DNA from: Solirubrobacterales bacterium
GTDB taxonomy: Bacteria > Actinomycetota > Thermoleophilia > Solirubrobacterales > JACPNS01
Direction: 5' to 3'
Length of the DNA: 64,000 bases
Assembly: GCA_016185345.1 (NCBI GenBank)
Contig: JACPNS010000005.1
Coordinates: 34,117 to 98,116 of the forward strand
This document shows, in pieces, positions 13,032 through 38,692 of this stretch. Numbering within the stretch: the stretch's first letter is position 1; every line of letters begins with the position of its first letter. The position numbers were made by a program, and so were the translations under genes. The notes below the pieces were generated by a model. That model was not told the origin of the DNA. It saw nothing but the letters and a program-made list of their open reading frames with translations, and made no database searches.

Positions 13032-13607
13032 ATGCCGCGCCGCAGATTCAAGCCGCAGCGATCCAACCCGCCGGTGCGTCAGCGCCCGAGCGTCGGTCGC
13101 GCGCCGATCATCGATCCGACCGACGGAACCACCGAACCATCCGGCGCGGCTGGCGTCATGATTCCCGAGTCGCAGACCGAACTCGAAGAGATTGAGATTC
13201 TCGAAGGCCCGCTGGTCGCGGTGGTGATGGGCGCGGAGAGCGACCGCGTCGTGATGGTGGAGGCCTGCGAAGAGCTGCAGGCCCGCGGTATTTCATTTGA
13301 GGAGACGGTCGTGTCTGCGCATCGCGACCCGGAGCAGGTCCGCGAGTACGCCCGCGGCGCGCGAGCACGCGGCATCAAGGTGATCATCGCTGGGGCTGGC
13401 ATGTCGGCAGCGCTTCCAGGATCGATCGCGGCATACACCGATCTTCCTGTGATCGGCGTGCCGATCCGCAGCGAGAACGGCGTCAGCGGCGGGCTCGACG
13501 CACTGCTTTCGATCGCTCAGGCGCCAGCCGGTGTGCCAGTCGCCTGCGTGGCGATCAACGGTGCTCAGAACGCGGCGATTCTGGCGTCTCGGATCCTCTT
13601 CGCCTAG
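13032..13607 (+). CDS. purE: 5-(carboxyamino)imidazole ribonucleotide mutase / AIR carboxylase catalytic subunit
   Basis: '[10 protein letters not shown]', 'SAHR' and '[12 protein letters not shown]' motifs. The first ~42 codons are a non-conserved basic/Pro extension. An alternative start is the ATG at 13158. Confidence 0.9.
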
Positions 13608-14226
13608 CTCGGCTGAGCGCCACGTAGGCCAGCGAAAGCACGATCGCGAAGACCGTGATTGCGAGGATGTTGATCGCCACTTTGCCATAGCCCTTGGCGA
13701 TCACGTCGATGAATGGGTACGGGTACCAATCCGCGATCGCGCCGCGAACAAGGGTGTAGACAATCCACAGCAGGGGCCAGATCAGCGTGCGCGGCACATC
13801 GCTGAGCGTCATCGCAGGCCACGGTCCCGCCGCGATCCACGCAATCACCGTGAGCGGCGGAGCTATGTAGTGGAGCATGTAGCTCGCGACCTGCGCGAGA
13901 CCTTCGTTCTTGATGTCGCCAGCGAGGATCGTCATATAGACGATTCCAGTGACCGTGATTCCGACCAGCGAGGCAAGTCTCAGCGCTCGCCACCAGGGAT
14001 CATCGACGGGCTTGCCCTTGACAACAGCAAGTGCGGCGAGCACGACCACCAAGTTGCTTTGGATCGTGAAGTAACTGACGAACCGGGTCATCCGCGTCAG
14101 CAGATTCGGATCGTCCGGCGCAGGATCGGGATCGAAGATCGTCAGGCCCAGCCGCAACAGAAGCGCCGTGCCGACGAACACAGCGACGAAGAGTTGCACT
14201 CGCTTTGCGGTGGTCGATGCGGCCAT
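13555..14226 (-). CDS. polytopic membrane protein (Pr6Pr / FAR-17a-AIG1-like)
   Basis: 223 aa with about 6 hydrophobic helices and a 'YFTIQSN' motif. The family assignment is tentative. Confidence 0.55.
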
Positions 14227-14263
14227 CCGCTTTCCCTTCGACGCGCCGCATAGGATCTCCCCC

Positions 14264-15553
14264 GTGATCGATCGTTATACACGTGACGCCATTGGTGCCG
14301 TCTGGAGTGAACAGGCGAAGTTCGACAGCTGGCTCCTGGTTGAGCTTGCCGTCTGCGACGCGCTGTTTGACGCCGACGTGATCCCGGCGGCGGACCTCGT
14401 GGCGATCAAGGACCACGCGAAGTTCACGGTCTCTGCCGTGAAGGAGCGTGAGGAGATCACCAACCACGACGTCGCCGCGTTCGTTGACGTGATCAGCGCC
14501 GACGTCGGTGAAGCCGGTCGTTGGATCCACTACGGCCTGACCAGTAGCGACGTGCTCGACACCGCGCTTGGCATCCAGATAGCGAAGGCCGGCGAGATTC
14601 TCGTTGCCGGAGCGCGCGAGTACGCCGACGCACTGGCACGTCGAGCCAAGGAATTTGAAGATGCGACCGCCGTGGGCCGAACGCACGGGGTCCACGCCGA
14701 GCCCACGACCTTCGGCGTGAAGCTCGCGGGATTTGCCTTCGAGGCCCGCCGCAACCTGGGGCGCCTCGAACGCGCATTTGAGCAGTGCCGCGTCGGCGCT
14801 CTCTCTGGTGCCGTCGGCACCTACAGCGCAAATGGTCCCGACATCGAAGAGGCCGTCCTGACCAAGCTAGGGCTTGAGCGCGAGCCGGTCTCCACGCAGG
14901 TCGTCGCGCGCGATCGCCATGCAGAGCTGTTGAGTGCGATCGCGATCGCCGGCGCGGGGCTCGAGCGCTTCTCAACCGAGATTCGCGCGCTGCAAAAGAC
15001 CGAAGTACGCGAGGTCGAGGAGCCGTTCGCCTCCGGTATGCAAAAAGGCAGCAGCGCGATGCCGCACAAGCGCAACCCGATCACCAACGAGCGCATCACC
15101 GGCCTGGCCCGCGTGCTGCGCGGCAATGCCAACGCAGCGATCGAGAATGTCGCGCTCTGGCACGAACGCGACATCACGCACAGCTCGGTCGAGCGCATCA
15201 TCCTCCCGGACTCCACGATTCTTCTCGACTACATGCAGTCACTCGCGATCAAGGTCGTAAACGGCATGACCGTCCACACGGACCGCATGCTCAGCAACCT
15301 CGAAGTCACGCACGGCGCGCTCTTCAGCCAACGCGCGCTGCTTGCGCTTGTCAACGCCGGGCTCACCCGCGACGAGTCATACCGGATCGTCCAGCAGGGT
15401 GCCCAGGAGGCATGGGACACCGGCGTCAACTTCCGCGATCTTCTTGCGGCGGAAACCGAGCGTCAAGGAATCAAGGTCGACATCGACGCGATCTTCGATC
15501 CGTCCGCGTATACGAAGCACGCACGCGCGATCGTCGCACGGCTCGACCAGTAG
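14264..15553 (+). CDS. purB: adenylosuccinate lyase
   Basis: Lyase-1 signature 'GSSAMPHKRNP'. Start trimmed to the GTG at 14264 ('VIDRYTRD...'). The longer ORF from 14168 overlaps the divergent gene. Confidence 0.93.
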   Translation: MIDRYTRDAIGAVWSEQAKFDSWLLVELAVCDALFDADVIPAADLVAIKDHAKFTVSAVKEREEITNHDVAAFVDVISADVGEAGRWIHYGLTSSDVLDTALGIQIAKAGEILVAGAREYADALARRAKEFEDATAVGRTHGVHAEPTTFGVKLAGFAFEARRNLGRLERAFEQCRVGALSGAVGTYSANGPDIEEAVLTKLGLEREPVSTQVVARDRHAELLSAIAIAGAGLERFSTEIRALQKTEVREVEEPFASGMQKGSSAMPHKRNPITNERITGLARVLRGNANAAIENVALWHERDITHSSVERIILPDSTILLDYMQSLAIKVVNGMTVHTDRMLSNLEVTHGALFSQRALLALVNAGLTRDESYRIVQQGAQEAWDTGVNFRDLLAAETERQGIKVDIDAIFDPSAYTKHARAIVARLDQ

Positions 15554-21832: not shown

Positions 21833-22453
21833 TCAGACCTCGGGCTGCGCGTCGATCGACGCCCAGAGATAGAGACACGCGAGCGTGCGGTACGGCCTCC
21901 AAGGCTCGGCGATCTCGACCATCTCTGCATGCGACGGAAGCTCATTGAGCCCGTACTCGATCATCATCGCCTTGCGGATCCCAAGATCCCCCGTGGGCAG
22001 AACGTCTTCGCGCGAAAGATGGAACATCAAGAACATGTGCGCCGACCAGACGCCGATGCCCTTGACCGCCACGAGCTCGGCGATCACATCTTCATCGGAA
22101 AGCTTGTGCAGCTTGTGCAGCTCAAGCTCGCCATTGATCACGTGCTCGGCGAGCGAGCGCAAATAGTTGGTCTTCGCGCGGGAGAGGCCGCCAGCAACCT
22201 TCAATGCTTCAGGATCAGCGTCGAGTATCTGCTGCGGGGTCGGCACCTCGCCGCCGAAATAGTCGAGCACGCGTTGGTAGATCTTCGCCGCAGCCCTGAC
22301 CGAAAGCTGTTGGCCGGTGATCGTGCGAAGCAGCGATCCGTAGTGGTCGTCTGGGCGTTCGGCGTGGGTGTTGTCAAGGTGCGTGTCGGGGGTGCGGGCG
22401 ATCAGGGCTGCGAGCACCGGGTCAGAGCGTTTGAGGCGCGTGAGGGACTTCAA
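21833..22453 (-). CDS. alkA: DNA-3-methyladenine glycosylase II-type HhH-GPD protein
   Basis: 'ITGQQLSVRAAAKI', 'VKGIGVWSAHMFLMF' and 'DLGIRKA'. Start proposed at the TTG at 22453, forming TTGA with the upstream stop. The track ORF extends to 22525. Confidence 0.8.
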   Translation of the reverse strand: MKSLTRLKRSDPVLAALIARTPDTHLDNTHAERPDDHYGSLLRTITGQQLSVRAAAKIYQRVLDYFGGEVPTPQQILDADPEALKVAGGLSRAKTNYLRSLAEHVINGELELHKLHKLSDEDVIAELVAVKGIGVWSAHMFLMFHLSREDVLPTGDLGIRKAMMIEYGLNELPSHAEMVEIAEPWRPYRTLACLYLWASIDAQPEV

Positions 22454-23049
22454 CGGTGCGATCGGTCCATCTCCGCTGAGAGCTCCCTGATCGTGCGAAC
22501 GAAATCGTCGAGCTTCGACACGCACTGCGGCCCGAGGTCATCGGCGCGGGCCGTGAAATGTCGCACCAGTTCATTCAAATACCAGAGCTGACCCTCGCGG
22601 CCTTCCTTGAAGCGCGGCCAGATGTCATCGCCGATGCATCGATAATCCAGCAGCGTCGCGCGAGCGTTGTGCAGCTTGTCGGCGAGCGAGATCAGCAGCT
22701 CATCGCGCGCCTTGCCCGGCAGCGAGTTGAGGTACTCCTGTTTGCGCGCGCGCCAGGGTGGTTTGGGCTTCTGGTCCGTGTCGGTGTTGGCGAGGACTAT
22801 CCGCGCGACGTCCGCGCCGAACTCCTCGCGAACCCGCTCGGCCATTGGCGCTCCGCCGCAATCCTCGACCACATCGTGCAGCAGCGCGGCGATCGCCTCA
22901 TCCTCGCTGCCCTCCATCTCGAGCACGATCGAGGACACTCCGAGGAGATGCGAGATGTACGGAATCTCGGTTCCTTTGCGCACCTGCTTCTTGTGCGCCT
23001 TGCGCGCGAATTTGACTGCTTTTTCGTACCGTTTTGTGAGCGTCACCAT
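22450..23049 (-). CDS. small HD-domain (p)ppGpp-hydrolase-like protein (RelA/SpoT HD family)
   Basis: Trimmed to 'MVTLTKRYEKAVKFARKAHKKQVRKGTEIPYISHLLGV...AALLHDVVEDCG'. The rest of the 317-aa track ORF is antisense to greA. Confidence 0.75.
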   Translation of the reverse strand: MVTLTKRYEKAVKFARKAHKKQVRKGTEIPYISHLLGVSSIVLEMEGSEDEAIAALLHDVVEDCGGAPMAERVREEFGADVARIVLANTDTDQKPKPPWRARKQEYLNSLPGKARDELLISLADKLHNARATLLDYRCIGDDIWPRFKEGREGQLWYLNELVRHFTARADDLGPQCVSKLDDFVRTIRELSAEMDRSHR

Positions 23050-23095
23050 GAGAGCCGAGACTCTAAGCGTTTCGCAACCGGTTAGCTTCTGGTGA

Positions 23096-23566
23096 ATGAA
23101 CGACCAAGTACCGATGTCACAGGCCGCATACGACGAACTCGAAGCCGAGATCCAAAAGCTCGAGAACGAGGAGCGCCCAAAGATCGCAGCGAAGATTTCC
23201 GTCGCGCGTGAAGATGGCGACCTCAAAGAGAACGCCGAGTACCACGCCGCCAAGAACGACCAGTCCTTCCTTGAGACCCGCATCCTGCAGCTGCGCGAGC
23301 AGCGCCAGCACGCGGTGATCATCGAGGCAACCGGCAACGAGACCGAGATCGGCTTCGGCTCGACCTTCACGCTGCTCGACGACACCAGCGGCAAGGAGAT
23401 CACCTACACGATCGTCGCCTCTTACGAGCAGGACGCTTCGGCCGGCAAGCTCTCAAACAGCTCGCCAGTCGCAGAGGCCGTGATCGGCAAGAGCGCAGGT
23501 GACTCCGTCACAGTGAGCCTGCCCAACGGCAAGAAGCGCAAGTTCAAAGTCGTAAAACTCGGTTAA
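23096..23566 (+). CDS. greA: transcription elongation factor GreA
   Basis: 156 aa. Coiled-coil N-domain with 'DLKENAEYHAAK', and a C-terminal 'SSPVAEAVIGK' region. Confidence 0.93.
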   Translation: MNDQVPMSQAAYDELEAEIQKLENEERPKIAAKISVAREDGDLKENAEYHAAKNDQSFLETRILQLREQRQHAVIIEATGNETEIGFGSTFTLLDDTSGKEITYTIVASYEQDASAGKLSNSSPVAEAVIGKSAGDSVTVSLPNGKKRKFKVVKLG

Positions 23567-24250: not shown

Positions 24251-25162
24251 ATGTCCGATTTCAAGAACCTCCCCGCCCTCGACCTGCCGCTGGTCTCGAA
24301 GGGGAAGGTGCGCGACACGTACGAGCTGCCCGGCGGCGACCTGCTGATGGTCGCCAGCGACCGGATCAGCACGTACGACGCGATCCACCCGAACCCGATT
24401 CCCGGCAAGGGCCAGGTGCTCACCGGCACCTCGGTCTTCTGGTTTGAGCAGCTCGGCGAGTTGGTGGAAAACCACCTGATCAGCACGATTGAAGATGTGC
24501 CTCCGGCACTGCGCGGTCGTGCGCTTAAGGTGAAGCGACTTGAGATGCTGCCGATCGAATGCGTTGTACGCGGGTATCTCGCGGGGTCCGGTTGGAGCGA
24601 TTACCAAGAGACCGGGGCAGTCTGCGGAGTCGGGCTTCCCGACGGCCTGAAGGAATCATCTGAACTGCCCGAGCCGATCTTCACACCCGCGACCAAGGCC
24701 GACATCGGAGATCATGATGAGAACATCGACGAGGCTGGCGCGATCGAGGCACTCGGCGGAGACGCGGAGCTGTTCGCCAAGGTCAAGCGCCTGAGCGTCG
24801 CGATCTACGAGCACGCGCGAGAACACGCCGCGACCAAGGGAATCATCCTCGCCGACACCAAGTTTGAGTTCGGCATCGACCCGGACAACGGCAAGATCAC
24901 GCTCGGTGACGAAGTGCTCACACCGGACTCTTCGCGCTACTGGCCGGCCGACGCCTACGAGCCCGGCCACGCGCAGTCCTCATTCGACAAGCAGTTCGTG
25001 CGTGACTGGGCACGTTCGACCGGCTGGGACAAGTCACCGCCGGCGCCTGAGATTCCGCCGCACATCGTCGAGCAGACGCAGAAGCGCTACATCGAGGCAT
25101 ACGAGCGCCTCTCGGGCAAGCCCTTCAGCGGCTGGCTCGACAGCGTCGGTGCGATCGCCTGA
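24251..25162 (+). CDS. purC: SAICAR synthetase
   Basis: 303 aa. 'GKVRDTYE', 'SDRISTYD' and 'LADTKFEFG' motifs. Confidence 0.95.
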   Translation: MSDFKNLPALDLPLVSKGKVRDTYELPGGDLLMVASDRISTYDAIHPNPIPGKGQVLTGTSVFWFEQLGELVENHLISTIEDVPPALRGRALKVKRLEMLPIECVVRGYLAGSGWSDYQETGAVCGVGLPDGLKESSELPEPIFTPATKADIGDHDENIDEAGAIEALGGDAELFAKVKRLSVAIYEHAREHAATKGIILADTKFEFGIDPDNGKITLGDEVLTPDSSRYWPADAYEPGHAQSSFDKQFVRDWARSTGWDKSPPAPEIPPHIVEQTQKRYIEAYERLSGKPFSGWLDSVGAIA

Positions 25163-27417: not shown

Positions 27418-28851
27418 ATGCAACACAAATGGAAAGTCCTCACGATCGTCTCGGTCGCGATCTTCATGGGCAGCCTCGACCTGTTCATCGTCAACGTCGC
27501 ATTCCCCGATATCGCAGCCGAATTCGGCGGCGCCTCGCTCAGCGACCTCTCGTGGGTGTTGAACGCATTCGCGATCGTCTTCGCCGCGCTGCTCGTGCCC
27601 AGCGGCCGGATGGCCGACCGTTTCGGGCGCAAGCGATTCTTTGTCTGCGGCCTTGTGACGTTCATAGTCGGTTCAGCACTTTGCGGCCTCGCCCCTTCGC
27701 TCGAAACGCTCGTCGCCGCGCGCGTGATCCAATCGGCGGGAGTTGCCGCGATGGCGCCGACCAGCCTCGCGCTTCTCCTTCCTCAGTTCGAGCCGGCCGA
27801 ACGCCCGACTGCGATCGCGGTCTGGTCGGCTGCCGGAGGAATCGCCGCTGCGGCCGGCCCGCCACTCGGCGGACTGCTCGTGACGATCGACTGGCGCCTG
27901 ATCTTCTTCGTCAACATCCCGGTTGGATTGATCGCACTGTGGTTCGCCGTTCGCACGCTCGATGAAGCGCGCGACGAATCGGCGACCGAGTTGCCGGACC
28001 TCTTCGGCACCGCGCTGCTGATCAGTTCTGTCACGGCACTTTCCCTGGGACTCGTGAAGTCCGACGTCTGGGGCTGGACGGGCACCGAGACCCTCGCGAG
28101 CTTGGCGGTGTCGCTGGTGACCGCGATCTGGTTCGTGCGGCGCTCGGCGACACAGAGCTCGCCGGTGATCGACCTCGATCTCTTCCGCGTGCGCTCCTTC
28201 GCCATGGCCAACGTCGCGTCGCTGTTCTTCTACGCGGCCTTCAGCGCGGGCCTGTTGGTGATGGTGCTGTTCCTCACCGAGGTCTGGGGTGAGTCAGTTC
28301 TGACCGCAGGCCTCTGGCTGGCGACCGGACCGGCTGCGGCGGCGATCACAAGTGTGCCCGCCGGAAAGCTCGGCGCGCGGGTGGGCCAGGGCCGCGTCGC
28401 AGCTGTCGGATGCTTCCTGTTCGGACTCGGCACAGCGATCTTCGCGATGCGGGTGACGACCAGTCCAGATCCCTTGGGCACGATGACGCCGTCGTGGGTA
28501 CTCGGAGGCATCGGCGTTGGAATGGTGTTGCCGACGATTGCCGGCACCGTCGCGGCGGCGCTTCCGCCAGCGCGCTTTGCGACCGGCAGCGCCGTGATGA
28601 CCACGGCGCGTCAGATCGGCGCGGTGATAGGAGTCGCGCTGCTCATCCCGGTGCTCGGCACGCCCGACCCGGCCGATCCGATCCCGGCGTTCCAGGACGC
28701 CTGGCTGCTGATCATCGGGCTCGTGATGACGGCGTCGGTCGCCGGTCTGCTCTTCGGCAAGGTCACCCAGAACACCGAGGTCGCCCCGACGGAGGAACTG
28801 GCACACCAGCACCTGATAGCAGCGCCCGAGCCAGAGCCCGCCCACGCTTAA
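27418..28851 (+). CDS. MFS transporter (14-TM DHA2/EmrB-like drug:H+ antiporter type)
   Basis: Trimmed to 'MQHKWKVLTIVSVAIFMGSLDLFIVNVAFP'. 'GRMADRFGRKR' loop motif and many TM helices. The upstream part of the 730-aa track ORF is antisense to the HxlR gene. Confidence 0.88.
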   Translation: MQHKWKVLTIVSVAIFMGSLDLFIVNVAFPDIAAEFGGASLSDLSWVLNAFAIVFAALLVPSGRMADRFGRKRFFVCGLVTFIVGSALCGLAPSLETLVAARVIQSAGVAAMAPTSLALLLPQFEPAERPTAIAVWSAAGGIAAAAGPPLGGLLVTIDWRLIFFVNIPVGLIALWFAVRTLDEARDESATELPDLFGTALLISSVTALSLGLVKSDVWGWTGTETLASLAVSLVTAIWFVRRSATQSSPVIDLDLFRVRSFAMANVASLFFYAAFSAGLLVMVLFLTEVWGESVLTAGLWLATGPAAAAITSVPAGKLGARVGQGRVAAVGCFLFGLGTAIFAMRVTTSPDPLGTMTPSWVLGGIGVGMVLPTIAGTVAAALPPARFATGSAVMTTARQIGAVIGVALLIPVLGTPDPADPIPAFQDAWLLIIGLVMTASVAGLLFGKVTQNTEVAPTEELAHQHLIAAPEPEPAHA

Positions 28852-29010
28852 CACCGCACGCTCCCCAAGCGAAAACGCTCGCGGCCAGGACGACTCCCCC
28901 CAGGGTGTGTTCCGGCCGCGGCGTTTGTATTACCTCGGGATATCTCTGCCGTCGCCGCCCCAACTCTCGATACGCTCAGACCTCACTCGGTCCTCGGAAG
29001 GAGCCACACC

Positions 29011-29250
29011 TTGGCCGTCAAAGCCACCGTCCTGATCCGTCCCAAAGAAGGCATCCTCGACCCTCAGGGCGAGGCCGTCGAGAACGCACTTCCCGCGCTC
29101 GGATTCTCCGGCGTCAGTCACGTACACGTTGGTCGCCTGGTTGAGCTTGAAATCGAAGACGACTCGCAGCTCGAGTCGATGTGCGAGAAGCTGCTCGCCA
29201 ATCCGTTGATCGAGGACTACGAGATCGTCCAAAGCCCGATCAAGGCCTGA
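29011..29250 (+). CDS. purS: FGAM synthase subunit PurS
   Basis: 79 aa. TTG start preceded by GGAAGGAG. 'RPKEGILDPQGEAV' motif. Confidence 0.9.
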   Translation: MAVKATVLIRPKEGILDPQGEAVENALPALGFSGVSHVHVGRLVELEIEDDSQLESMCEKLLANPLIEDYEIVQSPIKA

Positions 29251-29942
29251 TGACGAAGTTCGGGATTCCCCAGTTCCCGGGCTCGTGCGACGAGACCGAC
29301 ACGTTGCTCGCCTGCGCGCGCGTCGGCGAAGCCGAACTGCTCTGGCACAAGGACAAGGACCTCAAGGGAGTTGACGTCGTAGTCATTCCCGGCGGATTCT
29401 CCTACGGCGACTACCTGCGCGTCGGCGCAATCCCGCCGTTCAGTCCCGTGATGCAGGCCGTCGCCGAGCACGCTGCCGACGGCGGATTGGTGCTCGGAAT
29501 CTGCAACGGCTTTCAGGTGCTCACCGAGGCCGGCCTGCTCCCGGGCGCGCTACTTCCGAACGTGAATCTCTCGTTCACCTGCCGCCAGGTCGATCTGATC
29601 GTCGAGAACGTCGAGACGCCATTCACCCACGAGTGCGTGCCGACCGAGCGCCTCTCCATCCCGGCCAAGCACACGACCGGCCGCTATTTCGCCCCGACCG
29701 AGATGCTCAACGCGATGGAGGCTGAAGGACAGGTGCTGCTGCGGTACGCGCAGGGCCACAACTTCAACGGCTCGACCAATGACATCGCTGGCGTCTGCAA
29801 CGAACAACGCAACGTCTTTGGCCTGATGCCCCACCCCGAGCACGCAGTCGATCCCCTCACCGGATCAGACGACGGGCTGAAACTCTTTGCATCACTCGCC
29901 AGCGCTGCGCCGATGGCCCTCGCAACCGGAGACGCGACGTGA
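29250..29942 (+). CDS. purQ: FGAM synthase glutaminase subunit PurQ
   Basis: ATG overlaps the purS stop (TGATG). 'GICNGFQ' nucleophile Cys and 'MPHPE' His. Confidence 0.93.
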   Translation: MTKFGIPQFPGSCDETDTLLACARVGEAELLWHKDKDLKGVDVVVIPGGFSYGDYLRVGAIPPFSPVMQAVAEHAADGGLVLGICNGFQVLTEAGLLPGALLPNVNLSFTCRQVDLIVENVETPFTHECVPTERLSIPAKHTTGRYFAPTEMLNAMEAEGQVLLRYAQGHNFNGSTNDIAGVCNEQRNVFGLMPHPEHAVDPLTGSDDGLKLFASLASAAPMALATGDAT

Positions 29943-32233
29943 CTACCGCTGAAGCGCCCCACCGCGCTCTAGGACTGACCGACCCCGAGTTCGACCTGAT
30001 CGTCGAGAAGATGGGCCGCGAGCCCAACGCCACCGAGCTCGCGATGTTCAGCTTGATGTGGTCCGAGCACTGCTCCTACAAACACAGCAAGAAGATCCTC
30101 GGGCAGCTGCCCGTCGACGGGCCGCACCTGTTGATGGGCCCGGGCGAGAACGCCGGAGCCGTCACGGTTGGCGACGGGCTTGCAATTGCCTTCAAGGTCG
30201 AGTCGCACAACCACCCCTCGGCAGTCGAGCCGTTCCAGGGCGCCGCGACTGGCGTCGGCGGGATCCTGCGCGACATCTTCGCCGTCGGTGCCCGCCCGAT
30301 CGCGGTGCTTGACTCATTGCGCTTTGGCGAGCTCTCCAGCCAGCGCTCCCGCTTCCTCGCCGACCGCGCCGTCGCCGGCATCGGTCACTACGGCAACTCG
30401 ATCGGCGTGCCAACTATCGGCGGTGAGATCTACTTCGAAGGTCCCTATGAGCAGAACTGCCTCGTCAACGCAATGGCGCTCGGTCTTGCGCCGGCGGACC
30501 AGCTGATCAAGAGCGCTGCAGCGGGTGTGGGCAATCACCTCGTTCTCTTCGGCGCTTCTACCGGCCGCGATGGCATTGGCGGAGCCTCTGTGCTCGCCAG
30601 CGCCGAGCTTGGCGACAACGACGACTCCAAGCGCCCGACCGTTCAGGTCGGCGACCCGTTTGAAGAATCCAAGCTCGTCGAGTGCTGCCTTGAGCTGCTT
30701 GGCAAGGACCTGCTCGCTTCACTCCAGGACCTCGGCGCCGCCGGGCTCACCAGCGCGTCGTCGGAGATGGCGAGCAAGGGCGAAGTTGGATTGGACATCC
30801 ACGTCGACCGCGTGCCGCTGCGCGAGCAGGGCATGGAGCCCTTCGAGATCATGGTCAGCGAGTCGCAGGAGCGGATGCTCTGTGTGGTCACGCCAGAGCT
30901 GCTCGACCAGGTGCTCGCCATCTGCGACAAGTGGGACCTCCACCACGCCGTGATCGGCGAGGTCACAGACACGCGCCACATGCAGATCTACGAGAACGGC
31001 GAGCTCGTCGGCGACATGCCGGTGCCCGCGCTTGTTGATGACTGCCCGGTCTACACGCTTGCGCCAGAAGAGCCGACGGAGCAGATCTACCCCGCGCCGA
31101 GCGTGGACAGCGACGCCGCTCGCGCCGCTCAGGCAGCGTTCGAGAAGAGCGCCCAGGGCATCCTCACGGCGCTGCTTGCAAGCGACAACATCTCCAGCCG
31201 CCGCCACTACTTCGAGCGCTACGACTGCATCGTCGGCTCGCGCACAACAAAGCGTCCCGAGCAGGCAGAGGCGGCAGTGCTGCATCTCTGGAAGCAGAAC
31301 GAATCAGGCGCCCCGATCGCCGGGCCGACCATCGCCGTCAGCATCGACGGCTCGGGCCGCAAGGTCGCCGCAGACCCTTACCGCGGAACGATCGGCAACG
31401 TCCTTGAGTGCGCCGCGAACATCGCCTGCGTCGGTGGCGAGCCGCTCGGGCTGACCAACTGCCTCAACTTCGGCAACCCCGAGAAGCCGCACATCGCATG
31501 GCAGCTGACCGAATCGGTCAAGGGCATGCGCGATGCCTGCAACGCGCTCAACCTTCCGGTCGTGGGAGGAAACGTCTCGCTCTACAACCAGAGCTCAGAC
31601 GGCCCGATCTACCCCACGCCGGTCGTGGGGATCGTCGGCGGCGTGCCCAATCCGGCAGTCGTGGCAACCAACAAGTTCGAAGAAGGCGAGCTCTTCGTGG
31701 CGCTGATCGGACCGTTCGAGCCGACCCTCGCTGCCTCTGAACTGGCGAAGCTCGTCGGCGACCCACTGCCGACACGCCTGCCGGATCTCGACCTTGCAAA
31801 GCTCGCCGAGGCGCTGACGATCGTGCGTGACGCAGTGCGCGCAGGAACGATCAAGGTCGCACGCGACATCTCCGAGGGCGGCCTCGCGACAACGCTCGCC
31901 GAGTGCGCACTCGGCGGCGTCGGCGCGACGATCGACGCCACGCCGCTCGTCGAGCGCGTCAAGCGCGCGTTTCCGGAGGCAGAGCCACACCAGCACGCCC
32001 GCACCGCGCTGTTTGGTGAAGGGCCAGGCGGCATCGTCGTCGCCGGGACACGCGAGGATCTCCTCGCCCTGTCAAGTACCGCTGCAAAAGTCGGGTTTTT
32101 GGCTCTAGGTAGTACTGGTGGACAACTGTTGTCGATCGCCGAACCCACTGGTACATTGAATGAGATCTCGCTTCCAGCGAGCGAGATCCAGCGCATACAC
32201 GGCGGTGCGCTTTCGGAACGAGTTTCCTCTTGA
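29939..32233 (+). CDS. purL: FGAM synthase subunit PurL
   Basis: 764 aa. 'SEHCSYKHSK' and 'ESHNHPS'. GTGA overlap with purQ. Confidence 0.96.
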   Translation: MTTAEAPHRALGLTDPEFDLIVEKMGREPNATELAMFSLMWSEHCSYKHSKKILGQLPVDGPHLLMGPGENAGAVTVGDGLAIAFKVESHNHPSAVEPFQGAATGVGGILRDIFAVGARPIAVLDSLRFGELSSQRSRFLADRAVAGIGHYGNSIGVPTIGGEIYFEGPYEQNCLVNAMALGLAPADQLIKSAAAGVGNHLVLFGASTGRDGIGGASVLASAELGDNDDSKRPTVQVGDPFEESKLVECCLELLGKDLLASLQDLGAAGLTSASSEMASKGEVGLDIHVDRVPLREQGMEPFEIMVSESQERMLCVVTPELLDQVLAICDKWDLHHAVIGEVTDTRHMQIYENGELVGDMPVPALVDDCPVYTLAPEEPTEQIYPAPSVDSDAARAAQAAFEKSAQGILTALLASDNISSRRHYFERYDCIVGSRTTKRPEQAEAAVLHLWKQNESGAPIAGPTIAVSIDGSGRKVAADPYRGTIGNVLECAANIACVGGEPLGLTNCLNFGNPEKPHIAWQLTESVKGMRDACNALNLPVVGGNVSLYNQSSDGPIYPTPVVGIVGGVPNPAVVATNKFEEGELFVALIGPFEPTLAASELAKLVGDPLPTRLPDLDLAKLAEALTIVRDAVRAGTIKVARDISEGGLATTLAECALGGVGATIDATPLVERVKRAFPEAEPHQHARTALFGEGPGGIVVAGTREDLLALSSTAAKVGFLALGSTGGQLLSIAEPTGTLNEISLPASEIQRIHGGALSERVSS

Positions 32234-33738
32234 CCCCCACGGACACCTTTGCGGATCGTGACGGTCCACGCGACGAATGTGGCGTGTTCGGAATCTACGC
32301 ACCCGAACTCGATGTCGCCCGCCTCACCTACTTCGCGCTCTACGCGCTCCAGCACCGCGGTCAGGAGTCGGCGGGAATCGCTTCCTCGGACGGATCGCAC
32401 ATCATCACGCTGCGCGACACCGGGCTTGTCAGCCAGGTCTTCGATGAAGAGAAGCTGCGCGGACTGACCGGCAACATGTCGGTCGGCCACGTGCGTTACT
32501 CAACGACCGGTTCATCCGGCTGGGAGAACACCCAGCCGATCTACCGCGCCGACCACCACATGATCGCGCTGGCCCACAACGGCAACCTGATCAACGCCGT
32601 CGAGCTGCACTCCGAACTGCGCGAAAAGGGCATCACCTTCCGCTCGACCAGCGACAGCGAAATCATCGCCGCGCTCGTGTCGAATTCCGAAGCTGAGACG
32701 ATCGCCGACGCAGTCGCCGAGATCATGCCGCGCCTGCGCGGAGCGTTTTCGACCGTCATCTGCAACAAGGAGATGGTCGTCGCCTTCCGCGACCCGAACG
32801 GCCTGCGCCCGCTGGCACTGGGTCAGATCGGTGACCGCTACTGCTTTGCTTCTGAGAGCAGCGCCTTCGACATCATCGGCGCCAAGTTCCTTCGCGAGGT
32901 CGAGCCCGGCGAGATGATCGCCCTTACCGAGGGCGGCATGGAAGTCACGATGGTCGTCCCCGGCGAGCGCAAGGCATTCTGCGTCTTCGAGCACATCTAC
33001 TTCGCCCGCCCCGACAGCCACCTCGAGGGCCAGCTCGTCCAGCAGTCGCGTGGCCGCATGGGCGAGATCCTCTGGCGCGAAGCGCCAGTCGAAGCCGACA
33101 TGGTCGTCGCCGTTCCAGACTCCGGCAACCCGGCCGCCAAGGGTCTTTCCCGCGCGTCCGGCATTCCGATGGACGACGGCCTGATCAAGAACCGTTACGT
33201 TGGCCGAACCTTCATCCAGCCGGGGCAAGAGCTGCGCAAGCTCGGCCTGCGGATGAAGTTCACCCCGTTGCCTGAGATCGTCTCCGGGCAGCGCCTGATC
33301 ATCGTCGACGACTCGATCGTCCGTGGCAACACGACTCGCCAGATCATCGGCATGCTCCGCGAGGCCGGCGCCAAGGAGATCCACGTCAGGATCAGCGCGC
33401 CCCCGATCCGCCACAGCTGCCACTACGGGATCGACATGTCCACGAACGAGAACATGATCGCCTACGGCAAGAACGTCGATGAGATCGCCAAGGAACTCGG
33501 CGCCGACTCACTCGCCTACATCTCACTCGAAGGCGTCTACGAGGCAATCCGCGGCGAACGCGGCGAGCACTGCGACGCCTGTTTCACCGGCGAGTATCCG
33601 CTGGCAGACACAGACCGCGCCACCGGCAAGTTCGCGCTCGAAGAGATCTCACCGCTTCCGCAGGTCACGAACGGGAATGGCAACGGCGCGCATGAGCCGG
33701 TCGCCGCGCTTGAGCCGATCGCGCCCGCCAGATCCTGA
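32230..33738 (+). CDS. purF: amidophosphoribosyltransferase
   Basis: 502 aa. The Ntn Cys sits in 'DECGVFGIY'. PRPP loop 'IIVDDSIVRGNT'. TTG start overlaps the purL stop. Confidence 0.95.
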   Translation: MTPTDTFADRDGPRDECGVFGIYAPELDVARLTYFALYALQHRGQESAGIASSDGSHIITLRDTGLVSQVFDEEKLRGLTGNMSVGHVRYSTTGSSGWENTQPIYRADHHMIALAHNGNLINAVELHSELREKGITFRSTSDSEIIAALVSNSEAETIADAVAEIMPRLRGAFSTVICNKEMVVAFRDPNGLRPLALGQIGDRYCFASESSAFDIIGAKFLREVEPGEMIALTEGGMEVTMVVPGERKAFCVFEHIYFARPDSHLEGQLVQQSRGRMGEILWREAPVEADMVVAVPDSGNPAAKGLSRASGIPMDDGLIKNRYVGRTFIQPGQELRKLGLRMKFTPLPEIVSGQRLIIVDDSIVRGNTTRQIIGMLREAGAKEIHVRISAPPIRHSCHYGIDMSTNENMIAYGKNVDEIAKELGADSLAYISLEGVYEAIRGERGEHCDACFTGEYPLADTDRATGKFALEEISPLPQVTNGNGNGAHEPVAALEPIAPARS

Positions 33739-33746
33739 CCGCTCAC

Positions 33747-33820
33747 AAAGTTGGGCTGCCCGTAGGCTAACCCAACTTTATTCTGGTAAAGTTGCTTTAG
33801 CGAGATGCAACCCAACTTTA
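33747..33820 (+). promoter_or_regulatory. two tandem related stem-loops spanning the purF-fic spacer and the fic start codon
   Basis: H1 is AAAGTTGGG (33747-33755) paired with CCCAACTTT (33771-33779). H2 is TAAAGTTG (33787-33794) paired with CAACTTTA (33813-33820). The 12-mer AACCCAACTTTA occurs twice (33769, 33809). The fic ATG (33805) lies inside the H2 loop. Confidence 0.5.
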
Positions 33821-35022
33821 CGAAACATCAGATCCGCGACGAACTCTGGCTCCCCGACGCGGCAGCACTTGGCGGACGTGGCGCTCGAAAGCCCCGGCGC
33901 TATTCAGCGTATGTACCGGATGAGATCGCGGACGCGAGCTGGACGTTGGATGCCGGATTGACCGAGATGCTCAGTCGCGCCGAACTTCAGTGTCGCGAGC
34001 TCAACTCAAGCGCCGCGCAAGTCGGCCTCGAGTCGGCAGCGCGTCAACTGCTGCGATCGGAATCGGTCGCGTCTTCGCGGATCGAGGGCTACAAGATCTC
34101 GAATCGGCGCCTCTCGAAGGCCGCGGTTGCTGGCGTCCGCGATGTGAATGCTCAGACGGTGCTCGGAAACGTGAACGCGGTAACGCATGCATACGAATGG
34201 GCACAGGGCGGTGAGCCTTTCACCACTGATGTGCTCTGTGGGATCCATCGAATCCTTTTTGAGAACACCGAGAGCGAACGCTGGGGCGGAATCACCCGGG
34301 AGTCCCAGAACTGGATTGGCGGCGATGCCACCTCTCCGGCAAACGCTGAGTTCGTTCCGCCACCTGAGTCCGAGGTCGCCCGTCTGCTTGACGACCTCTG
34401 CGCGTTCTGCAATCGCATTGACCTGCCCCCGGTCCTGCAGGCCGCGATCGCGCACGCGCAGTTCGAGACGATTCACCCGTTCATGGACGGAAACGGTCGC
34501 GCCGGGCGAGCCCTGATCGGAATGCTCCTGACCAGGCGCGGCGTGAGTGGAGCCGTCGTTCCACCGGTGAGCCTTATCCTCGCCGGTCGCGCCTCGCGGT
34601 ATGTCAAGGGATTGACCAACTACCGCTACGCCGACGCCGACGACTGGTTTGAGTTCTTCGCAGCGGCCGTTGCCGACGCGGCGACTGCCGCGCGGGAGCT
34701 CGCCTCGTCGATCGTCGGTCTTCAGTTGAGCTGGCTGGAACAAGCGGGTTCGCCGCGCGCCGGCTCCTCCGCACGCATCCTCATCGAACACCTCCCGACC
34801 TTTCCCGTGCTCACGCTGGCAACTGCAATCGAGATCACCGGCGCGAGCTCGGAAGCAACCCGGCGTGCGCTCAACGCGCTCGAACGAGCAGGTGTCTTAT
34901 CTGAAACCACCGCCGGCAAGCGCTATCGCGTCTGGGAATCGGTCGGACTGTTTGCGCTCCTGGACGAGTTCGAACGTGAGCGTGCCGAACCCGGTCGGGC
35001 GCCGTCCGAAACAATTGGCTGA
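33805..35022 (+). CDS. fic: Fic-family protein (AMPylase type) with intramolecular inhibitory motif and C-terminal wHTH-like domain
   Basis: Canonical 'HPFMDGNGRAGRAL' (HxFx[DE]GNGRxxR). An upstream 'SSRIEG' matches the [ST]xxxE[GN] inhibitory helix. Confidence 0.9.
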   Translation: MQPNFTKHQIRDELWLPDAAALGGRGARKPRRYSAYVPDEIADASWTLDAGLTEMLSRAELQCRELNSSAAQVGLESAARQLLRSESVASSRIEGYKISNRRLSKAAVAGVRDVNAQTVLGNVNAVTHAYEWAQGGEPFTTDVLCGIHRILFENTESERWGGITRESQNWIGGDATSPANAEFVPPPESEVARLLDDLCAFCNRIDLPPVLQAAIAHAQFETIHPFMDGNGRAGRALIGMLLTRRGVSGAVVPPVSLILAGRASRYVKGLTNYRYADADDWFEFFAAAVADAATAARELASSIVGLQLSWLEQAGSPRAGSSARILIEHLPTFPVLTLATAIEITGASSEATRRALNALERAGVLSETTAGKRYRVWESVGLFALLDEFERERAEPGRAPSETIG

Positions 35023-35059
35023 TCTCGACCACCCCGCCGAACCCTCTAGCTTTTCGCCG

Positions 35060-35668
35060 ATGAACGACTTGCCTTCAGAATCGCTTCGCGTCTCGGTTCT
35101 TGCCTCGGGCGAGGGCTCGAACCTGCAGGCGCTGCTGGATGTGGTGCACAAGAAGCACGGCGTCGAGATCGTCTGCGTGGCCGGCGACAAGCCCGGGGCG
35201 AAGGCGCTCGAGCGTGCGCTTGACGCCGGAATCCCGATGGCAATCTTCGCGACCGCCGACTTCGAAGACCGCAAGGCACGCGACCTTGCGATGGCCGCGC
35301 ACCTGCGCGACGTCGGAACTGACCTGGTCGTGCTCGCGGGCTACATGGCGATCCTCTCCGAGGAGTTCATCGGCGCATTCTTCGGACGCATCATCAACGT
35401 CCACCCCTCCCTGCTGCCCAAGTATCCGGGCCTGCGCGCCATCGAGCAGGCACTCGAGGCTGGCGAGAACCAGACCGGCGTGACGGTGCACTACGTGGAC
35501 GAGGGCGTGGACACCGGCGATGTCATTGCGCAGGAGATGGTCGGCATCGCCCCTGGCGCGACCGCCGAGATGCTCGCCGAGCAGATCCATGCCGTCGAGC
35601 ATCGATTGCTCCCCGAGGTAGTCGCTCAGATTGCCGCAGCGCGGCTGCGCCCGGCGGATTCCGCCTAG
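35060..35668 (+). CDS. purN: phosphoribosylglycinamide formyltransferase
   Basis: Trimmed to 'MNDLPSESLRVSVLASGEGSNLQAL'. 'NVHPSLLP' motif. Confidence 0.92.
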   Translation: MNDLPSESLRVSVLASGEGSNLQALLDVVHKKHGVEIVCVAGDKPGAKALERALDAGIPMAIFATADFEDRKARDLAMAAHLRDVGTDLVVLAGYMAILSEEFIGAFFGRIINVHPSLLPKYPGLRAIEQALEAGENQTGVTVHYVDEGVDTGDVIAQEMVGIAPGATAEMLAEQIHAVEHRLLPEVVAQIAAARLRPADSA

Positions 35669-35685
35669 GTGCTCGCGCGAAAGGT

Positions 35686-35782
35686 CGCAATTTGCACCGG
35701 AGTTTGTGTCGCCTGTTGCACGGGGTTGGCACCAGGTGCCAACCCCGTGCGCGAATTGCCACTAACTACTACGCAAATTGCG
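35686..35782. repeat. 97-bp nested palindromic element in the purN-purH spacer
   Basis: Inner palindrome: 16-nt arms GCACGGGGTTGGCACC (35718-35733) and GGTGCCAACCCCGTGC (35735-35750), separated by a single A at 35734. Outer perfect 10-bp inverted repeat CGCAATTTGC (35686-35695) / GCAAATTGCG (35773-35782) is centred on the same base (35734). Confidence 0.8.
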
Positions 35783-35825
35783 GAGACGGTCACCCCGTGA
35801 CGAGCGCTTCGCGTATTCTGCCCTC

Positions 35826-37421
35826 ATGCCTGAGGAGACCCAGAACCCCACGAACGTTGAACTGACCCAGCCCGGCGCCGTGCGTATTCGCACCGCCCTG
35901 ATCAGCGTTTCTGACAAGCGCGGGATCGTTGACTTCGCGAAGGGCCTCGAAGAGCTCGGCATCCGGATCATCTCGACCGGCGGCACCAAGAAGGAGCTCG
36001 AGGAGAACGGGGTCAAAGTCACCGGCATCTCCGACTACACCGGCTCACCGGAAATCCTCGGCGGGCGCGTGAAGACGCTGCACCCGACGGTCCACGCCGG
36101 CCTGCTCGGCAAGCTCGACGACGAAGACCACATCGCGCAGCTGAACGAGAATGGCCTTGGCTCGATCGATCTGGTTGTCGTGAATCTCTATCCCTTCCAG
36201 CGCTTCGCCAACCGCCGCGGAGTGTCCGACGCCGAAGTGCTCGAGAACATCGACATCGGCGGCCCGACGATGGTGCGCGCCAGCGCGAAGAACTACAAGT
36301 TCACCGGCATAGTCGTCAGCCCCGAGAGCTACGACGCCGTGCTTGACGAGCTCAGCGAAGAGGACTGCTTGATCAGCCTCGAGACGCGCGAGTCGCTCGC
36401 CGTTGACGCCTTCAACTACACGGCGCAGTATGAGGCCGCGATCAGCACCTGGTTCAACGAGCGCTCGGGCAACGTGCCCGACCAGTTCGTGCGCGCCTAC
36501 GAGAAGCAGATCGATCTGCCCTACGGCGAGAATCCGCACCAGCGCGCGGCCTATTACGCCGAGGTCGGCAACCGCACCGATCTGCTGTCCATGGTCAGCC
36601 AGGAGCAGGGCAAGGAACTCTCCTACAACAACCTCCTGGACCTCGACGCCGGCCGCCGCCTGATCGAGGAGTTCGAACTTCCGACCTGCGTGATCCTCAA
36701 GCACAACAACCCGTGCGGGATCGCGATCAGCGCGACTCTCGAAGACGCGTACCTCAAGGCGCTCCACACCGACCCGCTCTCGGCTTTCGGTGGGATCTAC
36801 ATCTACAACCGCGAAGTGGACGGCTCGCTCGCGGCAAAGATGATCGAGAACTTCGTCGAGCTCGTGTTTGCCCCGAGCTACACGCCCGAAGCACTGGAGC
36901 TGTTCTCCACCAAAGAGAACCTTCGCGTGCTGGTCAACAACGAGCGCCGCTTCTGGCCCGTTTCAGACCCAGACCTGCGCGGCGTTCGCGGCGGGCTGCT
37001 GCTGCAGGATCGCGACGTGGACATCGACCCGCGCGAGGCGATGCAGGTCGTCACCCAGAACCACCCGTCCGAAAAGCAGTGGGGCGATTTGCTGTTCACC
37101 TGGCGCGTCTGCAAACACGTCAAGAGCAACGCGATCGTGATCGGCAACGACCTCACCACATTGGGAATCGGCGCTGGTCAGATGAGCCGAGTGGATTCGG
37201 TGAAGCTCGCCGTCAAGAAGTCGCGCGTTGAGTTGACTGGCGCCGTGCTCGCGGGCGACGCATTCTTCCCGTTCGCTGATGGTCCCGAGTACGCGATCAA
37301 GGCCGGAGTCACGGCGATCATCCAGCCGGGCGGATCAAAGCGTGACTCTGAAGTGGTCAAGGCCGCAGACGATGCGGGCATCGCAATGGTCTTCACCGGC
37401 CGTCGCCACTTCCGTCACTAG
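35826..37421 (+). CDS. purH: bifunctional AICAR transformylase / IMP cyclohydrolase
   Basis: Trimmed to 'MPEETQNP...'. Contains 'ALISVSDKRG', 'GGTKKEL' and 'IIQPGGSKRD'. Confidence 0.95.
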   Translation: MPEETQNPTNVELTQPGAVRIRTALISVSDKRGIVDFAKGLEELGIRIISTGGTKKELEENGVKVTGISDYTGSPEILGGRVKTLHPTVHAGLLGKLDDEDHIAQLNENGLGSIDLVVVNLYPFQRFANRRGVSDAEVLENIDIGGPTMVRASAKNYKFTGIVVSPESYDAVLDELSEEDCLISLETRESLAVDAFNYTAQYEAAISTWFNERSGNVPDQFVRAYEKQIDLPYGENPHQRAAYYAEVGNRTDLLSMVSQEQGKELSYNNLLDLDAGRRLIEEFELPTCVILKHNNPCGIAISATLEDAYLKALHTDPLSAFGGIYIYNREVDGSLAAKMIENFVELVFAPSYTPEALELFSTKENLRVLVNNERRFWPVSDPDLRGVRGGLLLQDRDVDIDPREAMQVVTQNHPSEKQWGDLLFTWRVCKHVKSNAIVIGNDLTTLGIGAGQMSRVDSVKLAVKKSRVELTGAVLAGDAFFPFADGPEYAIKAGVTAIIQPGGSKRDSEVVKAADDAGIAMVFTGRRHFRH

Positions 37422-37426
37422 ACGCT

Positions 37427-38692
37427 CTACGGAACGTCGAACTCCTGGGAGGGGTCGGTGCTTGGTTTCGGCGTCGGAGCAGGCTTGGGTGCTGCCTGCG
37501 GCTGAGGCTGAGGTGCTGCCTGCGGGACGGCCTGTTGTTGGACCTGCGGAGTTGCAGCCACGGCATTCGCACGCGCCGCTCGCCTTGCCGCGGCTGCCCT
37601 TGAGCGCGCACGGGCACGGGCGCGAGACCTGGCGCGCGCTTCGCGGCGTCGCTCGGCGCGACGTTCAGCCCGACGCTCCCGCGCGGCACGCGCTTCACGG
37701 CGTTCCTTCGCGGCTTTGGCATCGGCTTCCTTGTTGCTGGTCTGAGCGGTGTTGACGCTCGTGTCTTCTTCGCTACCGAGCTGACCGATCAAAAGGAAGC
37801 CGGCGACGATCACGGCAGCGATCGCTCCGGCAATCAATCCCGTGCGCTTGCGCTTCTCGGCAACCCTTGCGTCGGCCGCACGCTTCTTCTTGGCGCGAAG
37901 CGGACTCGGTGCGCGGCGAGCGGCATCGGTCGTGCCGACCACTCCGAGACTGAGGCTGCCGGTCAGCGCGCGAAGCATCGTTCCGGTCGGATTGGTGACT
38001 GCGGTGAGACCACGCGTTTTGATCGCGTGGCGGATGCAACCCGGGCAGCCAGCAATGTGCGCTGACGCCGTGCGGTACTCATCCGAACGCGGATCGAGGA
38101 TCCCGAGCGCGTACTGATTCACAAGCGGCAATAGCCCTTCGCACGCCTCGCCTTCCTCGTACTCCTCGAGCAGCGGCTCGAACTCCTCTTGAATCTCATC
38201 CATCAACTCGGCGAGCCGGAAGGCTCCGACGCCAATGATTTCGGCCGCTTCGAATGGCTTGAACCCGTAAACGTGGCACAGCGTCACCGCCTGGAGTTCA
38301 CGTTGGTTCAGACGCTTGCGCATGCGCGCCGAGAACTCACGCTGCTTTTGTTGCTGCTCCGGAGTGGCTTCGATCGGGTCGGCAATTCCTACCGCTTCGA
38401 GAACCTCGACGTCCATTCGCGTCTCGGGATGAAGCACACGGTGCTCGTCCACCGCCTGTCGGTATGTGGAGTCGGTCAGCAGCCGTTCGAGGTTTCCGAC
38501 CGCTCCCTTTCCCCACAGGTGTGAGAAGACGCCGTGCCAGGCACGGTTGTAAAAAGTGTCCACGTCGCGAGCCGCGAAGTCGATACCCGCGCTCGCCAGT
38601 TCGTTGTACGAAATGCGCGTGACGTCGGCCCGGTACTTGGCGTACTCGTCGCCGATCGCGTGGTCGGCCTGCTGGTCGAGCGCCGTGCTCAT
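37427..38692 (-). CDS. fused ECF-type sigma factor / ZAS anti-sigma domain / TM / low-complexity tail (locus A)
   Basis: 421 aa from 'MSTALDQQ'. Its ATG overlaps the upstream stop (ATGA). Sigma region-2-like 'FYNRAWHGVF...YRQAVDEHR'. Region-4-like 'LNQRELQAVTLCHVYGFKPFEAAEIIGV'. Zinc motif C184...H212-IAG-C216-PG-C219. TM helix 'GLIAGAIAAVIVAGFLLIGQL'. The tail is Arg/Ala-rich, then Pro/Gln-rich. Confidence 0.7.
   Translation of the reverse strand: MSTALDQQADHAIGDEYAKYRADVTRISYNELASAGIDFAARDVDTFYNRAWHGVFSHLWGKGAVGNLERLLTDSTYRQAVDEHRVLHPETRMDVEVLEAVGIADPIEATPEQQQKQREFSARMRKRLNQRELQAVTLCHVYGFKPFEAAEIIGVGAFRLAELMDEIQEEFEPLLEEYEEGEACEGLLPLVNQYALGILDPRSDEYRTASAHIAGCPGCIRHAIKTRGLTAVTNPTGTMLRALTGSLSLGVVGTTDAARRAPSPLRAKKKRAADARVAEKRKRTGLIAGAIAAVIVAGFLLIGQLGSEEDTSVNTAQTSNKEADAKAAKERREARAARERRAERRAERRREARARSRARARARSRAAAARRAARANAVAATPQVQQQAVPQAAPQPQPQAAPKPAPTPKPSTDPSQEFDVP

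Follow-up and report, generated by a model that had tools for sequence, protein, structure and literature searches.

A SoFic-type fic gene with a putative operator of its own lies among the purine biosynthesis genes of a Solirubrobacterales bacterium

A stretch of 64,000 nucleotides (nt) from a member of the Solirubrobacterales/Thermoleophilaceae (Actinomycetota), referred to here as the window (63% G+C), carries a fic gene between two genes of purine biosynthesis, purF and purN. As judged by its sequence, fic encodes an intact class II Fic enzyme of the SoFic type, a new member of a known family. Our preferred interpretation, which we hold to be reasonably probable, is that fic is an autoregulated accessory cassette that has long resided in the pur operon of this lineage and was relocated locally within it. 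The 405-amino-acid (aa) open reading frame (ORF), which runs from ATG to TGA, lies in the interval 33739-35059, which is exactly the space between the purF stop codon (TGA, 33736-33738) and the purN ATG at 35060. It begins 66 nt after purF and ends 37 nt before purN, on the same strand. The genes on which the argument turns are as follows.

33805-35022 (+), fic, 405 aa
32230-33738 (+), purF, amidophosphoribosyltransferase, upstream of fic (TIGR01134, 521.7 bits)
35060-35668 (+), purN, GAR formyltransferase, downstream of fic (TIGR00639, 217.5 bits; start set from relatives)
35826-37421 (+), purH, AICAR transformylase/IMP cyclohydrolase (NF002049, 691.5 bits; start set from relatives)

The window purF is 96% and 93% identical to the purF genes of two Solirubrobacterales/Thermoleophilaceae metagenome-assembled genomes; its true start is likely at about 32284 (in L166, a second locus of the same species described below, the gene is called from the equivalent position).

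The window Fic matches Pfam Fic (PF02661) at 73.7 bits against a cut-off of 24, and Fic_N weakly, which bears out the initial annotation of a Fic gene in the purF-purN interval. It matches the PADLOC SoFic model PDLC03963 over its full length (E 1.9e-71, 239 bits; residues 32-386 on model positions 5-358 of 361). Its catalytic, inhibitory, and C-terminal parts map as follows.

34474-34509 (+), Fic catalytic motif HPFMDGNGRAGR (H224-PFMDGNGRAGR-R235), residues 224-235, fitting HxFx(D/E)GNGRxxR
34072-34089 (+), inhibitory motif SSRIEG (S90 to E94-G95), residues 90-95, fitting (S/T)xxxE(G/N)
34762-34983 (+), predicted C-terminal helix-turn-helix with a beta-hairpin wing (AlphaFold2, alignment with the SoFic C-terminal domain, fold matches)

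The inhibitory motif lies 130 residues ahead of H224 on the same polypeptide, the arrangement that defines class II. The canonical active site and class II-like N-terminal SSRIEG that had been noticed at the outset thus hold up, and both are conserved: in an alignment of the window Fic with ten homologues of 55-65% identity, the catalytic H, D, G, N, G, R, and R are invariant, the inhibitory motif is invariant apart from a conservative R/K change, and many residues of the winged helix are invariant as well, which argues that fic is under purifying selection. The inhibitory motif is in cis, and the 66-nt and 37-nt flanks contain no separate small antitoxin ORF of the kind found in the class I pairs FicT/FicA and VbhT/VbhA. 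We also considered an AS1-like downstream antitoxin, as in Escherichia coli H397, and rejected it; in this the window differs from those SoFic-type loci that have such an antitoxin (PMC12249575), as its 37-nt downstream spacer leaves no room for one. The AlphaFold2 model scores 81.7 in the predicted local distance difference test (pLDDT) and has a predicted template modeling score of 0.84. Its C terminus folds into helices 322-329, 338-345, and 349-361 followed by a beta-hairpin at 365-379 (pLDDT mostly 80-96); SSRIEG is placed at the end of helix 76-93, where local pLDDT is only 50-60.

Whole-chain fold matches (Foldseek) were obtained to 7CB8, SoFic, Coxiella Fic2, and CccR. Among solved structures, the Mycobacterium marinum FIC protein 7CB8 is the closest relative (full-length match, E 1e-52, 32% identity; template modeling [TM] scores, 0.87/0.90); it is also actinobacterial, has about 400 aa in the same domain order, and was solved in complex with CDP (cytidine diphosphate), and our literature searches found no publication on it. 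SoFic of Shewanella oneidensis (SO_4266; the Millman et al. 2022 defense family, PDLC03963) resembles the window Fic in fold (TM 0.68/0.75) as well as in its PADLOC match, but shares only about 20% identity with it. SoFic-type class II Fic has been described as a single-gene anti-phage system (bioRxiv 10.1101/2022.05.11.491447), and SoFic-type proteins as AMPylating toxins (PMC12249575). The SoFic dimer binds the 100 bp upstream of its own gene, its inhibitory motif is SSEIEN, and its target for growth arrest is EF-Tu (bioRxiv 10.64898/2026.07.09.737422); the promoter-proximal operator described below is consistent with such binding. The window fic sits in a biosynthetic operon, not in a defense island, and has no defense or mobility genes nearby.

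CccR of Yersinia pseudotuberculosis (PDB 7XUX) offers a second comparison. It is a class II Fic protein with a C-terminal helix-turn-helix (HTH) and the motif SARIEG (compare SSRIEG), a dimeric autorepressor that acts at inverted repeats near the -35 and -10 elements of its own promoter, and its growth arrest target is FtsZ (PMC9755527). The palindrome over a -10-like hexamer ahead of the window fic fits this design, although the sites differ: the CccR operator is AGATAATCAT-N26-ATGATAATCT, whereas the window half-sites are CCAAnnTTA and TAAnnTTGG, with spacings of 6-7 nt and about 14 nt. CccR is moreover an effector secreted by a type VI secretion system that AMPylates FtsZ, while the window fic lacks any secretion context; in sequence, CccR and the window Fic match only in part (E 9e-12 over residues 84-267), and the TM scores are 0.58/0.64. 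By analogy with these proteins, the window Fic would most likely transfer AMP from ATP to a host protein once the inhibitory Glu94 is displaced, arresting growth; the target may be EF-Tu, FtsZ, or a similar protein, and a role in defense may be proposed on the same grounds.

Ahead of fic and running into its first codons are four half-sites, conserved in comparison with other fic loci, that make up a putative promoter/operator (coordinates without strand).

33747-33819, putative fic promoter/operator, four half-sites CCAAnnTTA/TAAnnTTGG (comparative conservation)
33747-33755, half-site A
33771-33779, half-site B
33787-33795, half-site C, overlapping the -10-like hexamer TAAAGT
33811-33819, half-site D, inside the first fic codons

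The palindrome formed by half-sites B and C has one copy in the window, against a mean of 0.03 in shuffled sequence. No further copy of the operator occurs elsewhere in these 64 kb. We see no sign that Fic regulates other pur promoters. Across 516 kb of fic loci, the palindrome is matched 26 times, and 23 of these matches lie between -150 and +40 of a fic start. Of 48 eligible loci, 18 have it linked to the fic start, among them nearly all with at least 48% protein identity; in homologues it stands 33-51 nt ahead of the start codon. The aligned upstream regions of 22 loci, pur-embedded and non-pur alike, have one layout in common: an upstream half-site, then TATCCAAnnTTA, 6-7 nt, and TAAnnTTGGATA, with an ATG or GTG 0-3 nt later in pur-embedded copies, which also have a TAnnnT hexamer 7 nt ahead of the start codon. 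A consensus scan for promoters and terminators found nothing in 33500-36000, so that the proposed -10 element rests on comparative conservation. We suggest that fic is a self-contained cassette with its own, leaderless promoter, in which the palindromic operator would cover the -10 region and the start codon would lie just behind it. The winged helix of Fic may bind this operator, and dimeric Fic would most likely repress its own transcription, as experiments show for CccR and suggest for SoFic. Within the SoFic-type Fic proteins, a large actinobacterial branch shares a well-defined palindromic operator and an apparently leaderless promoter, giving autoregulation of the CccR/SoFic kind a concrete DNA target.

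The consensus scan detected no terminator-like site after fic, which together with co-orientation and tight spacing makes co-transcription with the adjacent pur genes plausible; read-through from a pur promoter into fic is likely, and the fic promoter probably adds to expression of purN and purH. An Rfam scan of 28500-38000 (E ≤ 1) returned no RNA family and hence no ZTP or purine riboswitch near fic or purH.

The history of the gene was approached by comparing loci. We collected 80 purF loci (L001-L080), including 10 kb of flanking sequence to either side, from representative species of this order, mapped the window Pur proteins onto them, and searched for Fic homologues, which gave more than 4,700 matches. 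One homologue is 100% identical to the window Fic, and the next best does not exceed 65%. The identical copy is on L166, a 5.3-kb contig from another sample; its 99.2% identity to the window and its shared purF-fic junction indicate that it comes from the same species. In a neighbor-joining tree, the window Fic groups with homologue clusters P0004, P0009, P0013, P0047, P0078, and P0080, with P0042 just outside. All seven, P0042 included, are flanked by purN and purH, in loci that represent about eight related populations (L001, L167, L168, L169-171, L172, L173-176, and L177). Across these purN-fic-purH loci, Fic identity (58-74%) tracks purN identity (65-85%), with Fic evolving faster, which fits one old insertion inherited vertically. 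In L001 (12360-12372), L168, L172, and L177, purN takes its stop codon from the TAA of the outermost half-site (TAAnnTTGG), so that the fic cassette supplies the end of purN in those loci.

Comparison with relatives had been proposed in the initial annotation as a way to see whether fic is an insertion, and it shows an accessory gene: fic lies between purN and purH in one subclade, and is absent from the close relatives L002-L005 and from all 75 more distant relatives. That L002-L005 lack fic and have an unmarked purN-purH junction, of 12 nt in L002 and L005, means that it behaves as a presence/absence gene. In every locus checked, the G+C content of fic at third codon positions (GC3) is 0.07-0.2 below that of the flanking pur genes. 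None of 85 other fic loci has a pur neighbor. Among further homologue clusters, P0002 adjoins an integrase, P0016 lies among unrelated genes, and P0003 is on a short contig without pur flanks; P0012 is in a defense island with SIR2-STAND, Abi_alpha, and TIR genes, a location that may lend indirect support to a role in phage defense. The subclade indicates that a single-gene, defense-type toxin can stay for a long time inside a housekeeping biosynthetic operon, outside defense islands.

The position of fic upstream of purN was seen only in the window and in L166. In the window, the purN-purH junction, where fic lies in the related loci, is marked by the following sequences (again without strand).

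35669-35825, purN-purH spacer, 157 nt compared with 12 nt in the fic-less L002 and L005
35686-35782, near-palindrome of 97 nt with a perfect 15-bp GC-rich stem at 35719-35749
35808-35825, purH leader TTCGCGTATTCTGCCCTC at the 3' end of the spacer, equal to the fic-to-purH junction of L001, L167, L168, and L172

In the fic-less L002 and L004, the purN stop codon stands at the position of TTCGCGTATTCTGCCCTC. Downstream of the window fic, the native purN leader (CTCTAGC...ATG) is kept. As RNA, the 97-nt near-palindrome has a predicted fold of -73 kcal/mol (z -4.8). No Rfam family matches it, and neither the window nor 178 loci contain a second copy; in these sequences it is therefore no repeated miniature inverted-repeat transposable element or repetitive extragenic palindrome. 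The structure may mark a rearrangement, serve in processing or attenuation, or do both. We interpret the spacer as the scar of an ancestral fic position. An ancestor of the Solirubrobacterales subclade would, long ago, have acquired a fic of this lineage between purN and purH, and the gene would since have been passed on as a fast-evolving accessory gene that some relatives have and others lack. In the window lineage, the cassette with its operator would have come to lie one gene farther upstream, with purF before it and the native purN leader behind it, leaving the scar and the 97-nt palindrome at the old junction, where the leader TTCGCGTATTCTGCCC can be read as a trace of the former fic. 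The direction of this relocation, like its mechanism, is inferred. Neither integrase, transposase, nor target-site duplication flanks fic, and direct repeats there are not beyond chance. Tandem duplication followed by reciprocal deletion was weighed as a route for the fic/purN exchange; the junction sequences neither support nor exclude it.

The initial annotation had held that fic would reflect only an ancient neutral rearrangement if relatives shared the order purF-fic-purN, with purM always elsewhere and fic transcribed independently. Much of this was found, in that purM always lies elsewhere (see below) and fic bears the signature of an independent promoter/operator; the order in relatives, however, is purN-fic-purH, not purF-fic-purN.

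Several observations weigh against our interpretation of fic as an old, autoregulated, locally relocated resident. The window Fic is only 62-64% identical to the purN-fic-purH group, compared with about 72% expected from purN, and it may have been reacquired from a related donor rather than moved locally. The pur-embedded group is not cleanly monophyletic in the neighbor-joining tree, since the non-pur P0003 falls near P0042. The window operator is somewhat degenerate (right arm TTGC..TTTAG, consensus TTGG..ATAAG), and its hexamer stands 12 nt from the ATG, not 7. Selection for pur linkage could be the reason why fic has so long been retained in one operon, twice at different sites. The NCBIfam SoFic equivalog NF046030 is matched at only 63.9 bits against a cut-off of 550; by sequence, then, the window protein is a distant member of the SoFic family and not an orthologue of S. 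oneidensis SoFic. Enzymatic activity, target, DNA binding, and phage defense are predictions by analogy for the window Fic, as for any actinobacterial member.

An independent and recent horizontal insertion is one alternative, which we consider unlikely. A SoFic-type cassette would have come from a related donor into the purF-purN junction, itself a proven insertion hotspot (see below), and would be unrelated to the purN-fic-purH copies; the purN-purH spacer would then record a separate loss or some other event. The restriction of the purF-fic-purN order to the window and L166 speaks for such an event, as does the lack of any Fic homologue between 65% and 100% identity. Between these two loci, fic differs at 1 of 935 nt and purF at 28 of 1,455 nt, as in a recent arrival or sweep, and GC3 of the window fic is 0.71 compared with 0.84-0.86 in its neighbors. 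On the other hand, the nearest neighbors of the window Fic in the tree are the pur-embedded copies of sister genomes, the fic-to-purH junction sequence is kept at the window purH, and the flanks lack the mobility genes and target-site duplication of an insertion. We continue to prefer an old residence followed by local relocation.

The initial annotation had asked whether fic has a functional link to the pur operon, such as sensing of ATP or purine status, or is a selfish insertion. The evidence leans toward an accessory defense or toxin cassette with its own operator, absent from L002-L005 and without a pur neighbor in the 85 other loci. The link to purines is weakened rather than gone, since related fic genes reside in the pur operon across the subclade, making the association as old as the lineage. 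That Fic has been domesticated into the pur operon seems to us quite improbable. One version holds that an ATP-using modifier would track induction of the operon and slow growth under purine starvation; another, that Fic bound at its operator would be a roadblock that tunes expression of purN and purH. Coupling of this kind would account for the persistence of an intact fic in a subclade where purF falls to 77% and purN to 65% identity, for its occurrence at two different junctions that are always within purF-purH, for its placement on the same strand 2-60 nt ahead of the downstream gene with no intervening terminator, and for its invariant catalytic, inhibitory, and winged-helix residues. It sits poorly with the patchy presence of fic (L002-L005 and 75 more distant relatives do without it), with the absence of pur linkage from the 85 other loci and from P0002, P0003, P0012, and P0016, and with an operator that is the same whether pur-linked or not and has no copies elsewhere in the window; one ancestral insertion with vertical inheritance accounts for the pattern, and no paper listed by our literature search linked a Fic domain with a purine biosynthesis operon.

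A functional tie to purine status remains, in our estimate, a small minority possibility, and the same holds for its most specific form. Here a SoFic-type AMPylase would have been co-opted such that read-through from the purine-regulated promoter overrides autorepression, and both the amount of Fic and the ATP-dependent AMPylation of a growth-limiting target rise in purine starvation, or operator-bound Fic would set expression of purN and purH, or both. Were fic expression coupled to the pur promoter, the locus would be a natural wiring of a growth-arrest enzyme to nucleotide supply, and under co-option a defense-type toxin would be linked to nucleotide status.

It is very unlikely that fic is a decaying remnant, a nonfunctional passenger en route to loss: the degenerate right arm of the window operator and the close relatives that lost fic or never had it would agree with decay, as would a nonsense change in L166 (L166:5200-5294, window position 34709; codon 302 of fic, TCG to TAG, S302*) by which the winged helix would be lost, but the window ORF runs its full length, with none of its conserved residues altered, and the L166 change may be an error. 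S302*, the only difference in the 935 nt of fic, lies 30-85 nt from the end of a contig assembled from short reads, and may be either a genuine pseudogene allele or an artifact of assembly.

The initial annotation had read fic as occupying the position of purM, by comparison with the Bacillus-type operon purEKBCSQLFMNHD. Its inventory was accurate: the window contains purD, E, B, C, S, Q, L, F, N, and H, and neither family scans of the larger ORFs nor tblastn detected purM or purK in it (the PurM and PurK probes score 517 and 673 bits against their own NCBIfam models). The proposed replacement was not sustained. The order purD-E-B ... purC-S-Q-L-F-[gap]-purN-purH is conserved in relatives, and none of the 66 Solirubrobacterales/Thermoleophilaceae relatives with both purF and purN visible has purM between them. 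The PurM and PurK probes found no match in about 1.9 Mb of loci (for PurM, the window and 177 loci), and neither gene lies within about 10 kb of purF in the 80 relatives. Because purM is never found in the gap, the Bacillus purF-M-N template does not fit this lineage; purM and purK appear to lie elsewhere throughout the order, and fic would be no replacement for purM. We rejected Fic as an enzymatic stand-in for PurM as well, its fold being Fic plus a winged helix-turn-helix with no AIRS domains. The comparison corrects a misreading that arises when the Bacillus operon is taken as a template for Thermoleophilia.

The purF-purN junction is instead a lineage-wide hotspot for accessory genes. In the 66 loci, the gap measures 22 bp to 9.4 kb, and 9 of them have essentially none. 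It holds 78 well-supported ORFs, of which 31 encode a RecQ helicase, 9 an NMO-like protein, and 4 a beta-lactamase-like protein, the rest being mixed (P450, nitrite/sulfite reductase, and rve integrase genes among them); no AIR-synthase or Fic domain is among the families listed for the gap ORFs of relatives. In most Thermoleophilaceae relatives, recQ lies between purF and purN on the same strand (for example, L011:11478-13307). The purN-purH junction of L003 has an insertion of about 2.7 kb other than fic (L003:14663-17402), which shows that this junction is variable too; both junctions are accessory-gene hotspots in this order.

The remaining pur genes of the window, like those above, were verified by NCBIfam or Pfam and are all on the plus strand.

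11757-13031 (+), purD
13032-13607 (+), purE
14168-15553 (+), purB
24251-25162 (+), purC
about 29017-29184 (+), purS
29181-29942 (+), purQ
29939-32233 (+), purL

The canonical pur order that was first reported is kept in relative terms (purE..B..C-S-Q-L-F..N-H, as in the Bacillus-type operon), but these genes are not contiguous as in a Bacillus-like operon. Unrelated genes fill about 8.7 kb between purB and purC, and another stretch of about 3.8 kb, with a major facilitator superfamily transporter gene in it, lies between purC and purS; only the purS-Q-L-F-(fic)-N-H block is tightly packed. The cluster differs from the Bacillus-type operon also in lacking purK and purM throughout the order, in having purD lead rather than trail, and in its variable purF-purN junction, most often filled by recQ.

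Some minor observations concern other parts of the window. The purE product meets TIGR01162 over model positions 1-126 of 156 only, with a score exactly at the cut-off, and carries an N-terminal extension of 45-60 aa. About 650 bp with a minus-strand hydrophobic ORF (13555-14226) lie between purE and purB, which abut in relatives. The polyphosphate kinase gene ppk1 adjoins a Ppx/GppA phosphatase gene (59717-62808, minus strand), and a gene for an HD-domain (HD_4) protein (22450-23403) adjoins greA; neither pair has an evident link to fic.

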